The notes: generated from the letters alone by a model not told the origin. Shown: positions 3,136-13,214, counted from the stretch's first letter. The stretch: DNA of 64,000 nt from an uncultured Lentimicrobiaceae bacterium (GCA_964511085.1 CAZEDO010000001.1:39942-103941); one strand, 5' to 3'. Numbers and translations are program-made.

Positions 3136-4473
3136 TTATAGGATACCCTGATCTAACATTGCATTTGCTACCTTCAGGAAGCCGGCAATATTGGCACCTT
3201 TTACATAGTTAACGTAACCATCAGGTTGTTTGCCGTATTTTACACAAGAACTGTGGATGTTCTTCATAATTTCATGCAGCCTTCCGTCAACTTCATTAGC
3301 TGACCAGTTAAGCTTCATCGAGTTTTGTGACATTTCCAGCCCTGACGTGGCAACACCACCTGCATTAACGGCTTTGCCCGGTCCAAATAATATTTTATTT
3401 GTCAGAAGCACCTCAACAGCTTCGGGTGTTGATGGCATGTTAGCACCTTCGGCAACACAAATGCAACCATTCTTTACAAGATTAAGTGCATCTTCTTTGT
3501 TGAGCTCGTTTTGCGTTGCACAAGGCAAAGCCACATCGCATTTTACTTCCCAGGGGTGCTTGCCCTGATGAAACTGTGCACCGGGGAATTCATAAGAATA
3601 TGGTTTTACAATATCCTGGTTTGAAGCACGGAGTTCGAGCATATAAGTAATCTTTTCTCCTGTGATGCCATCAGGATCGTAGATGTATCCGTCAGGACCA
3701 GAGATTGTGACCACCTTGCCACCAAGCTCAGTAATTTTAGTAACGGCTCCCCATGATACATTTCCAAAACCCGACAAACAAACGGTTTTACCTTTAAAAG
3801 AATCTCCCTTTGTAGCCAGCATTTCATTAGCAAAATAAGCAGCGCCAAAGCCGGTAGCTTCGGGCCGTACGAGGCTTCCGCCCCAATTGATTCCTTTGCC
3901 AGTAAGAACACCTGTGTGCTCCTGTGCCAGTTTTTTATACATACCAAACAGGAAGCCTATTTCACGACCACCAACACCTATGTCGCCTGCAGGAACGTCA
4001 GTTTCGGGACCAATGAAACGCCAGAGTTCCAGCATAAACGATTGGCAAAAACGCATGATTTCAGCATTTGACTTACCTTTTGGATCGAAATCAGACCCTC
4101 CTTTTCCGCCACCCATTGGCAAAGAAGTAAGGCTGTTTTTAAAGATTTGCTCAAAACCCAGAAATTTCAGGATACTAAGATTAACACTCGGGTGAAAACG
4201 CAGACCACCTTTGTATGGACCAATAGCGTTATTAAACTGAATCCTATAAGCAAGATTTACCTGTACTTTGTTGCTGTCGTCAACCCATGGAACTTTGAAA
4301 CTTAAAATCCTGTCGGGCTCTATGATTCTATCAATGATGCCGGCGGCCTCAAAATGAGGGTTTTCACTTAATACTTCTTCCAGTGATTCGAGTACTTCGC
4401 GCACTGCCTGAAGATACTCCACTTCTCCCGGATGTTTCTTCTCCAGGTTGCTCATTACTTTTTCTAAATTCAT
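3136..4473 (-). CDS. gdhA: Glutamate dehydrogenase (hexameric Glu/Leu/Phe/Val dehydrogenase family), clostridial-like isoenzyme
   Basis: Full-length 445 aa carrying the family active-site box [18 protein letters not shown], plus [11 protein letters not shown] and [15 protein letters not shown]. The dinucleotide fold reads GFGNVSWGA ... VTISGPDGYIYDP. Confidence 0.95.
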   Translation of the reverse strand: MNLEKVMSNLEKKHPGEVEYLQAVREVLESLEEVLSENPHFEAAGIIDRIIEPDRILSFKVPWVDDSNKVQVNLAYRIQFNNAIGPYKGGLRFHPSVNLSILKFLGFEQIFKNSLTSLPMGGGKGGSDFDPKGKSNAEIMRFCQSFMLELWRFIGPETDVPAGDIGVGGREIGFLFGMYKKLAQEHTGVLTGKGINWGGSLVRPEATGFGAAYFANEMLATKGDSFKGKTVCLSGFGNVSWGAVTKITELGGKVVTISGPDGYIYDPDGITGEKITYMLELRASNQDIVKPYSYEFPGAQFHQGKHPWEVKCDVALPCATQNELNKEDALNLVKNGCICVAEGANMPSTPEAVEVLLTNKILFGPGKAVNAGGVATSGLEMSQNSMKLNWSANEVDGRLHEIMKNIHSSCVKYGKQPDGYVNYVKGANIAGFLKVANAMLDQGIL

Positions 4474-4513
4474 CTTTTTTATGTTTAAATAGTTATCAAT
4501 ACTTATGCTGCTT

Positions 4514-4541
4514 TCGCATTGTTATTAAAATAACACTGCGA
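4514..4541. promoter_or_regulatory. 28-bp near-perfect palindrome upstream of the minus-strand GDH gene (candidate operator)
   Basis: TCGCATTGTTATT-AA-AATAACACTGCGA. The arms match at 13 of 14... specifically 12 of 13 positions (one mismatch). It lies 41-68 nt upstream of the ATG at 4473. No T-run follows on the minus strand, so it does not look like a terminator for the upstream gene. Confidence 0.35.
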
Positions 4542-11528: not shown

Positions 11529-11864
11529 AACCTATGAAGAAAAGAAAAATGTGTTTTTTTAAAGTCGGAACCACAATAAATTTTCTGAATACCAGCATTT
11601 TACTATTTTTTTATGGTTGTTTCCCAATTGTTTTCATGATGCAGCACAAAAAGTCCGCATTTAGCAGTATTTCGATGGTCTAAATCTAGCCAATTTAGCA
11701 TATGTCTATATCTGATTATGTATTTAATATTCTGTATATATGTAGTTTAACTCAAAAATGAAGAATCAAAATAAATATTTGAATTGTTGTTTCATTACTT
11801 AATTTTTCTTTAATATTGCCCCGTAAAAAACATTAATTTATCAATCATTAAACTATCCATTTTT

Positions 11865-13214
11865 ATGACAAACAATGTTATCGATCAAAAGGTCGAACAG
11901 TTCATGGCGAAAGTAATTGCCAAGAATCCAGGTGAAGTAGAATATCACCAGGCAGTACACGAAGTTGTTGAATCCCTGATGCCTTTCATTGAAGAACATC
12001 CTAAATACAAGGGTATTCTTGAGCGGATGGTAGAACCTGAAAGAGTTCTGATGTTCAGAGTTCCCTGGCTCGACGACAAAGGTGATTTCCAGATCAACCG
12101 TGGTTTCCGTATCGAGATGAACAGTGCAATAGGCCCTTACAAAGGTGGCCTGCGTTTCCATCCAACCGTTAACCTTGGCATCCTGAAATTTCTTGCTTTT
12201 GAACAAGTTCTGAAAAACAGCCTCACCACATTACCTATGGGCGGTGGAAAAGGCGGATCTGATTTCGACCCTAAAGGCAAATCTGATAATGAAGTGATGA
12301 AATTCACTCAGTCGTTCATGCTCGAATTACAACGTCACATTGGTCCTGACACCGACGTTCCCGCTGGTGATATCGGAGTTGGCGGACGCGAAATTGGTTT
12401 CATGTTCGGACAATACAAAAGAATCCGCAACGAGTTTACAGGTGTTCTTACTGGTAAAGGCCTCGAGTGGGGTGGCAGTCTTATTCGTCCTGAAGCTACT
12501 GGTTATGGCACAACATATTTTGCTGAAGAAATGCTCAAAACAAGGGGCTTGTCCTTCGCTGGAAAAACTGTTGTTATCTCAGGTTCAGGTAATGTAGCTC
12601 AATATGCTGTTGAAAAAGTTAACATGCTTGGCGGAAAAGTTGTTACACTTTCCGATTCGGCTGGCTACATTTTCGATCCTAAGGGTATCGATGCTGACAA
12701 ACTTGCTTATGTGATGGAACTGAAAAACGTAAAGAGGGGCAGGATAAGCGAATATGCTAAGAAATACAATTGTGAATATGTTGAAGGTAAAACCCCATGG
12801 CATGTTAAATGCGATGTGGCTCTGCCATGTGCTACACAGAACGAACTGAATGGTGACGATGCAAAAGCATTGGTTGCTAACGGTTGTTTCTGCGTTTCTG
12901 AAGGTGCTAATATGCCTTCTACACCTGAAGCTGCAGTTTATTTTGTTGAAAAGAAGATTCTGTACGGTCCTGGTAAAGCTGCTAACGCCGGTGGTGTTGC
13001 TACATCAGGTCTCGAAATGTCGCAGAATTCTATGCGTCTTTCATGGACACGTGAGCGCGTTGACCAGGAATTGCACAGCATTATGATCAACATTCACAAA
13101 ACATGCGAAAAATATGGAACTGAAGAAGGTGGCTTTATTAACTATGTTAAGGGCGCTAACGTTGGTGGATTCGTTAAAGTAGCTGAAGCTATGATTTCAC
13201 AGGGACTCGTTTAA
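11865..13214 (+). CDS. gdhA: Glutamate dehydrogenase, E. coli GdhA-like (probably NADP-dependent) isoenzyme
   Basis: 449 aa with [29 protein letters not shown] and [15 protein letters not shown]. The dinucleotide fold reads GSGNVAQYA ... [13 protein letters not shown]. By eye it is roughly 60% identical to the 3136-4473 product. Confidence 0.95.

Follow-up and report, generated by a model that had tools for sequence, protein, structure and literature searches.

Two glutamate dehydrogenase genes flank a pair of receiver-ATP-grasp proteins

We analysed a 64,000-nucleotide (nt) stretch of DNA from an uncultured Lentimicrobiaceae bacterium (GCA_964511085.1 CAZEDO010000001.1:39942-103941; the window, with positions counted from its first letter) for the function of two adjacent genes encoding large proteins, A and B, which lie between two glutamate dehydrogenase (GDH) genes. 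The four open reading frames (ORFs) have the coordinates, strands, lengths and gaps given in an earlier note made from the sequence alone. GDH-1 (3136-4473, minus strand, 445 amino acids (aa)) is a hexameric-type GDH of the PRK14030 subfamily, downstream of B on the same strand. Protein B (4629-7595, minus strand, 988 aa) is composed of a pseudo-receiver (pseudo-REC), a receiver (REC), a DUF5752-like linker, an ATP-grasp domain of the PPDK_N family and an orphan C-terminal domain with a conserved histidine. Protein A (7632-11528, minus strand, an ORF of 1298 aa) has the same five domains, preceded by a PAS-like domain and a sensor domain that we call 'AWQYP' after its motif. GDH-2 (11865-13214, plus strand, 449 aa) is an NADP-specific GdhA-type GDH divergent from A.

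Both GDHs matched Pfam ELFV_dehydrog (GDH-1 at E 3.6e-86) and are 63% identical to each other. GDH-1 scored 820 bits against NCBIfam NF010633 (cutoff 743), and GDH-2 scored 762 bits against the equivalog NF006929 for NADP-specific GdhA (cutoff 536). A and B share 39% identity across 969 aa and, as judged from this alignment, are true paralogues, as had been proposed.

The A-B gap is 36 nt (7596-7631). The B/GDH-1 spacer (4474-4628, minus strand, 155 nt) contains no terminator and no Rfam match, and the gap corresponding to it spans ~140-290 nt in Bacteroidales loci, by arithmetic from coordinates. A hairpin scan detected a strong intrinsic-terminator-like structure after GDH-1 (3086-3112, minus strand; a 12-bp stem followed by a T-run) and a strong terminator-like hairpin after GDH-2 (13243-13271, plus strand), with no comparable site in the A-B or B-GDH-1 gaps. 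Because no terminator-like hairpin separates A, B and GDH-1, the string could be read through. The 155-nt gap could alternatively serve as a promoter site.

The 336-nt divergent spacer between A and GDH-2 (11529-11864) is AT-rich, as reported earlier, with a GC content of 0.32-0.36 in the 1-kb composition windows that span it. Orthologues of A begin with MxxIEFNLDG and are mostly annotated as 1276 aa long. Since they start at the equivalent residue, Met23 (position 11462, 1276 aa) is most likely the start of A; by this comparison the first 22 codons of the ORF (11463-11528) are probably untranslated, and the divergent spacer would measure 402 nt. It holds a TAATATTG box (~11805-11815), ~54 nt 5' of the GDH-2 ATG. 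The same box occurs 40-75 nt 5' of GDH-2-type genes in 20/40 dereplicated loci, a count that reaches at most 11 in shuffles. It resembles the Bacteroidetes -7 promoter element, TAnnTTTG, and is likely the -7 element of gdhA. A sigma-70 promoter scan, whose model is unsuited to Bacteroidota, found no more sites than in shuffles, and an Rfam search of the spacers for a riboswitch or other RNA element gave one sub-threshold chance match only.

Receivers, linker and ATP-grasp domain of A and B

A and B have five modules in common: REC1, REC2, the linker, the ATP-grasp and the C-terminal domain (residue numbers are those of protein B unless stated). The AlphaFold2 (AF2) model of full-length B had a predicted local distance difference test (pLDDT) value of 83.8 and a predicted template modelling score (pTM) of 0.75. 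We assessed conservation in an alignment of 97 A- and B-type sequences, and separately among 104 representatives clustered at 50% identity.

The N-terminal region of B adopts a receiver fold, with matches to Pfam Response_reg in two stretches (E 1.8e-9), receiver-like secondary structure in the AF2 model, and many single REC structures found by Foldseek in the PDB at target-normalised TM-scores of 0.7-0.8. REC1 (7116-7538, minus strand, aa ~20-160; Response_reg E 2e-8 over aa 66-122) is a degenerate pseudo-receiver, in which the positions of the acidic pair, acceptor Asp, T/S and Lys are not conserved across the 97-sequence alignment. REC2 (6642-7088, minus strand, aa ~170-318) is a complete receiver with an extended helix alpha-1. 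Its quintet of E177/D178, the acceptor D247 (codon 6855-6857), S281 and K300 is invariant in 97/97 A- and B-type sequences, and D247 and K300 are each retained in 95/104 of the more diverse representatives. The acceptor Asp of A is D562. The combination of a degenerate with a canonical receiver that had been read in both proteins is thus a property of the whole alignment. Between REC2 and the ATP-grasp lies the DUF5752-like linker (6300-6641, minus strand, aa 319-432), a beta-hairpin plus helical bundle with a near-invariant W366 and conserved H357 and R370; its match to Pfam DUF5752 (E 2.9e-4) is under the cutoff, and PF19027 is on record for several homologues.

The ATP-grasp domain (PPDK_N) spans 5145-6296 in B (minus strand, aa 434-817; Pfam E 6e-38) and 8145-9284 in A (minus strand, aa 749-1128; Pfam E 6e-35). 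Key residues in B are K438, R440, R529, E535/D536, E776/E778, Q797 and R799. The motifs singled out in the earlier note (GGK.RG, RSS..ED, E.E and Q.R/K) proved to be invariant in the family: G436-G437-K438, R529-S530-S531, E535-D536, E778 and Q797 are present in 104/104 representatives, and conservation is slightly less complete at Q602 (103/104), R440 (102/104), R799 (101/104) and E776 (99/104). We equate the conserved positions with K22, R92, D321, E323, Q335 and R337 of pyruvate phosphate dikinase (PPDK). On alignment the nucleotide- and Mg-binding residues are intact, which settles an earlier concern that they might be degenerate. By its residue content, the ATP-grasp of A and B is catalytically intact, and it falls in a class whose members phosphorylate a histidine.

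The ATP-grasp of HpeI, a subunit of a phenolic dikinase, was matched by B in Foldseek against the PDB (9goj, E 5.6e-10), and hhalign aligned part of the B ATP-grasp, and only part, with that of Escherichia coli PpsA at a probability of 85.6. By profile, the nearest PDB sequences were 5hv6/5fbs (E 1e-4, part of the ATP-grasp only), deposited as 'phosphoenolpyruvate synthase' and presumably rifampin phosphotransferase (RPH).

Two positions separate the subtypes. All A-type sequences (47/47) have Lys at the Arg799 equivalent (LLQIKP) together with Ser919, and all B-type sequences (50/50) have Arg799 and Thr919. By these signatures, A-type and B-type are distinct, fixed subfamilies, and given that the signatures are fixed, one of the two subunits may be regulatory.

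The sensor end of protein A

The PAS-like domain of A (11139-11462, minus strand, aa 23-130) matched PAS_9 weakly (E 0.032), and PF13426 is on record for A-orthologues that are 74% identical (P0126-P0134; P and L numbers are our labels for proteins and loci). The adjacent 'AWQYP' domain (10653-11057, minus strand, aa ~158-292) is marked by an invariant Cys, the AWQYP motif and EGPFLxEER. Pfam found nothing in it, and its sole outside match (E 0.1) was with helix 1 of the GAF domain in Nlh2, by which it is possibly GAF-like. Of the PAS and GAF-like inputs originally proposed for A, the first is weak in this copy but on record for orthologues, and the second goes back to that one match. Most A-orthologues carry two tandem 'AWQYP' copies instead of a PAS domain and one copy.

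The 'AWQYP' module is also found at the N-terminus of a 277-aa NTP_transf_2 nucleotidyltransferase (hhalign probability 99). In seven loci the gene for this protein lies just downstream of A (for example, L130:5276-6109 and L123:12301-13161), and in 5/7 of them a metallophosphoesterase gene comes next. Loci other than this one have it between A and B. The nucleotidyltransferase and metallophosphoesterase could form an accessory modify/demodify pair.

The C-terminal domain has an invariant histidine and no detectable structural relative

The C-terminal domain of B (4632-5144, minus strand, aa 818-988, ~170 aa) is family-specific and carries the motif G-[S/T]-H-F-F. None of the 104 representatives departs from R880, E905, S916, G918 or H920 (codon 4836-4838); the corresponding histidine of A is H1232. 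Modelled alone, the domain reached a pLDDT of 89.4 in AF2.

We considered whether this could be a diverged PEP-utilizers swivel domain, given ILIGPGRWG..DPW and G-T-H-F-F set against ILVT..TDP.W and GG.TSHAA, a likeness that is local and limited to G-[S/T]-H. The idea was ruled out. The C-terminal 168 aa of A and B had no Pfam match at E<=10, the model had no significant Foldseek match in the PDB (best E 0.025) or BFVD, a 31-sequence profile had no match among PDB sequences, and hhalign against E. coli PpsA gave a probability of 0.1. Because every one of these tests was negative, we regard the domain as a structural orphan with an invariant G-[S/T]-His.

The complete dikinase module expected from the earlier reading did not hold up. 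PEP-utilizers (PF00391) and PEP-utilizers_C (PF02896) had no Pfam match in A, B or eight family variants, and both proteins end ~170 aa past the ATP-grasp. Scores against NCBIfam TIGR01418, NF005057 and NF004881 were 32-44 bits, against cutoffs of 598-883. Homologues are often named 'phosphoenolpyruvate synthase' or 'pyruvate, phosphate dikinase' in databases; because the swivel domain and the phosphoenolpyruvate (PEP)/pyruvate TIM barrel are absent, A and B are neither, which corrects a widespread misannotation.

Genes of the family are linked to GDH genes across phyla

To place the locus in context we surveyed three sets of relatives: B-orthologues (61-79% identical) in 80 genomes of different species, giving 81 loci with the window; A-type genes (59-93% identical) in 80 metagenome loci, forming 68 clusters at 95% nucleotide identity; and seven distant members, retrieved with a query ~35% identical to B and mostly from metagenome-assembled genomes (MAGs) labelled Desulfobacterales/Deltaproteobacteria. 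In the B-type survey, GDH was the commonest neighbour cluster (19/81 loci; 13 for the runner-up). A GDH-1-type gene lay immediately downstream of B in 12/62 loci with enough flank, and an A-type paralogue immediately upstream in 14/53. Among the 46 loci whose flank measured at least 5.8 kb, 7 had a GDH upstream of B; 6 of these 7 belong to the 12 loci in which A is adjacent.

GDH was also the top neighbour in the A-type survey (39/80 loci), compared with 14 for the second cluster, and lay within 2 kb upstream of A in 33 of the 56 dereplicated clusters with at least 2 kb of upstream sequence; 31 of these 33 were GDH-2-type genes on the opposite strand. In ~10 clusters the order was B< GDH< A> instead. 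The full four-gene bracket recurred only in L001, L005, L134 and L144, and the symmetric two-GDH arrangement, once proposed as the unit, is given up: two units are conserved, A with a GdhA-type GDH divergent from it and B with a GDH gene after it. A-type genes go mainly with NADP-GdhA-type GDH and B-type genes in closer Bacteroidales with PRK14030-type GDH, a pairing that is not strict.

Among the distant members, 4/7 were directly followed by a gene for a 449-aa GDH on the same strand, with gaps of 54, 65, 69 and ~555 nt. Two of these four loci (L163:4406-6875 and L168:3369-5845) were preceded by genes for a GAF-ANTAR regulator and a 527-aa Glu_synthase-domain protein, a compact nitrogen-assimilation cluster; one of the four lay near 2-oxoglutarate dehydrogenase genes. 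The linkage of the family to GDH genes is therefore conserved across phyla and extends well beyond this genome, and comparative genomics lends good support to the proposal of a dedicated module at the glutamate/2-oxoglutarate node. Because the outer flanks vary between loci, the pairing with GDH is not simply inherited synteny. In a genome of ~3,500 genes with two or three GDH genes, we roughly estimate that a gene would lie next to one of them by chance in ~0.1% of cases.

Other neighbours also recurred. A NarL/LuxR-type regulator (REC+GerE) was divergent from A in 14/80 loci (for example, L102:1960-2625), sometimes between GDH and A; the window itself lacks it, and a GerE-domain gene occurs near GDH in the distant locus L170. 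A trio of zinc-ribbon, NfnA-like and GltD/NfnB-like genes followed A in ~7 loci (L091, L098, L104, L105, L108, L109 and L125), and NuoE-like and NuoF-like genes with a 1228-aa GltD-molybdopterin fusion lay upstream of B in 12/81 (L011, L042, L078 and others). These recurrent neighbours point towards nitrogen and NADPH metabolism, and the redox genes among them suggest a connection with NAD(P)H supply. A supposed parallel in Bacteroides thetaiotaomicron, with gdhA and gdhB bracketing BT1971-72, was dropped, as published work shows BT1971 to be a catalase.

Size, spread and prior description of the family

Searching 1.84 billion clustered proteins with the B core (aa 330-988) gave 989 representatives at E<=1e-30. 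All close relatives came from uncultured Bacteroidales and Lentimicrobiaceae-type MAGs, and more distant ones from Desulfobacterales and Deltaproteobacteria MAGs. Most members are 980-1005 aa long. A REC-less class of ~710-735 aa retains the linker, ATP-grasp and C-terminal core, so the receivers appear to be accessory to that core; members of 500-620 aa were left out of this class because they may have been truncated at contig ends (for instance P0512, whose contig measures 1.7 kb). The family also includes chains of 1500-1650 aa, two of which (P0250 and P0294) carry two modules of PPDK_N plus C-terminal core. These two-core chains mirror the adjacent A and B genes, which suggests that the modules work as pairs.

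The architecture had been put forward as undescribed. As a domain combination it is not new: in the census by Galperin et al., 2018, REC+PPDK is already mentioned as a "Bacteroides-like" combination. Our literature searches, on PPDK_N or COG0574 with response regulator, on DUF5752 and on 'pyruvate-binding domain' names, yielded neither a functional study nor a characterised member, and neither these nor the homologue searches turned up a relative with a characterised, unrelated function. The family can be described as a response regulator with enzymatic output plus a structurally orphan domain, and we found no prior report of its partnership with GDH. We also considered a role in anti-phage defence and rejected it, as PADLOC returned no matches.

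Other features of the window

A polysaccharide/O-antigen biosynthesis cluster (13236-23073) abuts GDH-2 and encodes a Wzy-like ligase, several GT4 glycosyltransferases, and flippase-like, FemAB/GNAT-like and MBOAT proteins; Wzy-like and GT4 relatives also flank GDH-2 in L092, L099, L104 and L122. A trio of ABC-2 membrane protein, ABC_transp_aux (GldG-like) and DUF4340 genes lies at 25319-29078. In L086, L098, L100 and L108 the same trio is directly upstream of a GDH-2-type gene, indicating that gene order around this locus was rearranged in the present genome. Elsewhere, the window encodes at least six proteins with type IX secretion C-terminal sorting domains (Por_Secre_tail; 13-2925, 44176-47520 and 53240-59490), among them PKD-repeat proteins and M1 and M28 peptidases, in support of an origin in Bacteroidota. 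It also holds a mevalonate pathway segment (35974-39306), with HMG-CoA reductase and a diphosphomevalonate-decarboxylase-like gene.

A possible receiver-gated phosphotransferase at the ammonium assimilation node

We propose that A and B are ATP-grasp phosphotransferases, gated by a phosphorelay and by ligands, through which GDH or ammonium assimilation is controlled, a tentative reading to which we assign a probability of roughly 45%. It starts from the arrangement of the domains, the catalytic residues found intact, the absent dikinase substrate domains and the GDH linkage; the steps that go beyond these we infer. The Asp of REC2 would be phosphorylated by an unlinked histidine kinase, with ligand binding as an additional signal in A. 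These inputs would bring two modules together, as A+B or as homodimers, an arrangement that fits the PleD-like tandem receivers, the adjacency of A and B and the two-core chains. Pairing would switch on the ATP-grasp, which, by analogy with other PPDK_N enzymes, would transfer a phosphoryl group from ATP to the invariant C-terminal histidine, with His920 as the putative carrier. The phosphohistidine would then hand its phosphoryl group to a target governing ammonium assimilation, most likely the adjacent GDH or a GDH-regulating protein. The outcome would be a flux between 2-oxoglutarate and glutamate that is tuned after translation.

In a stronger form of this proposal, the family would be a new class of GDH covalent-modification regulators, in which a receiver-gated ATP-grasp autophosphorylates on a histidine of a domain not seen before; its next substrate would be GDH itself or, with the protein serving as a non-HisKA histidine kinase, receiver domains. 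We consider this form rather doubtful.

Several observations weigh against a phosphotransferase that controls GDH. Neither a GDH gene nor an A paralogue is nearby in 26 of the 38 B-type loci with both flanks, and 3/7 distant loci have no GDH; with many loci lacking a nearby GDH, the target need not be encoded nearby, nor need it be GDH. Where the genes are adjacent, co-regulation would account for the adjacency equally well, and so would a role in which A and B act on a metabolite and not on GDH itself. No histidine kinase was found in the 64-kb window among the ORFs scanned (30 additional ORFs), and no histidine kinase gene among the conserved neighbour clusters. The Lys at the Arg799 equivalent in all A-type proteins might mean reduced catalysis. 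Phosphorylation of the histidine is drawn by analogy and not from demonstrated homology, because the C-terminal domain has no detectable relation to the PEP-utilizers swivel domain. Finally, no characterised homologue was found.

Four other explanations compete with regulated phosphotransfer to GDH or its regulators. PPDK_N enzymes that act on small molecules include PEP synthase, PPDK, RPH, HpeHI, PpsAB, CreHI and PigC, and A and B might likewise be a receiver-gated small-molecule dikinase or ligase. Its core would phosphorylate, or activate in some other way, a signalling molecule or one of the metabolites at the glutamate/2-oxoglutarate node, the linker and C-terminal domains would form the substrate site, and GDH would be linked as maker or consumer of that metabolite. 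The activities of the characterised relatives (in part from Dexter et al. 2025, PMC12167813) speak for this, as do partial NCBIfam matches, HpeI as the top structural match and the metabolic nature of the linked genes (GDH, Glu_synthase, NfnAB-like and 2-oxoglutarate dehydrogenase). A and B contain no known substrate-binding domain, neither a TIM barrel nor a RIF-binding-like domain, however, and an input of two RECs, a PAS domain and a sensor, with divergent placement beside one enzyme gene, is more characteristic of regulators than of pathway enzymes; we judge a small-molecule enzyme unlikely. Somewhat less likely again is a phosphorelay that is independent of histidine kinases. Here the ATP-grasp and C-terminal histidine would replace HisKA/HATPase_c, A would be a new type of cytoplasmic sensor kinase with PAS and 'AWQYP' inputs, and the phosphohistidine would pass its phosphoryl group to the protein's own REC2 or to a separate receiver such as the NarL/LuxR-type regulator often found next to A, which would in turn control gdh transcription. 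The failure to find a histidine kinase gene near these genes in the window or among the conserved neighbour clusters, the invariant histidine beside an ATP-grasp of the histidine-phosphorylating class, the complete receiver in the same chain, and the REC+GerE and GerE-domain neighbours are all in keeping with such a relay. But receivers N-terminal to an enzyme domain are normally inputs, the tandem REC resembles the input module of PleD, and REC-less members retain the core. The NarL-type neighbour, moreover, occurs in a minority of loci and not in this window, and orphan response regulators with distant kinases are common.

GDH adjacency might reflect conserved synteny or a shared transcriptional context, with A and B regulating something unrelated. 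Most B-type loci lack GDH, and the other neighbours, housekeeping genes, differ from clade to clade, as this explanation would have it; yet the pairing persists as the outer flanks change, takes at least four different GDH arrangements, recurs in distant members from Deltaproteobacteria-labelled MAGs and exceeds the roughly estimated chance level. We find it improbable. That A or B is an ordinary PEP synthase or PPDK, as the database names of homologues and the PPDK_N domain would have it, is refuted by the missing PF00391 and PF02896 domains, with NCBIfam scores far under their cutoffs and an alignment to PpsA that reaches only part of the ATP-grasp; we give this reading almost no weight.

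GDH is the main entry point of ammonium in many anaerobic Bacteroidota. To our knowledge, its post-translational control in these bacteria has never been explained at the molecular level. The linkage described here joins GDH genes across phyla to a family of ~1,000 clusters that unites two-component signalling, an ATP-grasp and a domain of unknown fold, and it defines a testable candidate regulator of a carbon/nitrogen branch point. As the histidine-bearing domain has no structural relative, it may represent new phosphotransfer chemistry. If the stronger form of our proposal holds, the family would constitute a nitrogen-control switch in Bacteroidota and Desulfobacterota unlike PII/GlnD/GlnE or PknG-GarA. 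The title of a 1996 report by Baggio and Morrison reportedly speaks of 'trans-acting gene(s)' affecting Bacteroides GdhA activity; in the same event, the family could supply a candidate for the genes named in that title.

Comparison with known systems

Signal-controlled, ATP-using enzymes that set flux at a branch point of carbon and nitrogen metabolism by covalent modification, often encoded beside their target, include AceK (isocitrate dehydrogenase), PknG-GarA (GDH/KGD/GOGAT), GlnE/GlnD (glutamine synthetase) and EI-Ntr, which has a GAF sensor. The resemblance of A and B to these is one of functional analogy only, with no sequence or fold relation.

By homology the nearest systems are the dikinases. 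A and B share with PEP synthase and PPDK the N-terminal PPDK_N ATP-grasp and its conserved nucleotide- and Mg-binding residues, but they lack the swivel phosphohistidine domain and the TIM barrel, and add receivers, sensors and an unrelated C-terminal domain. In RPH, HpeHI, PpsAB and CreHI, PPDK_N cores are joined to partner domains other than a TIM barrel, and the catalytic histidine is near the C-terminus (PMC12167813). HpeI is the best structural match of the B ATP-grasp; however, RPH and the phenolic dikinases have a swivel domain with GGxT(S/C)H and a substrate-binding domain, neither of which is detectable in A or B, and have no receivers. There was also no HpeH-like partner among the conserved neighbours of A- and B-type genes. 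With swivel and substrate domains absent, A and B fall outside every characterised dikinase family.

The N-terminal half of the comparison leads to PleD. In A and B the degenerate receiver comes first, helix alpha-1 of REC2 is extended, and the output is an ATP-grasp and not a GGDEF domain. What they share with PleD is a tandem receiver in which one copy keeps the acceptor set, followed by an enzyme domain, and Foldseek aligned the two over ~380-460 columns (E ~5e-7). PleD is activated by dimerisation, a logic that A and B plausibly share.

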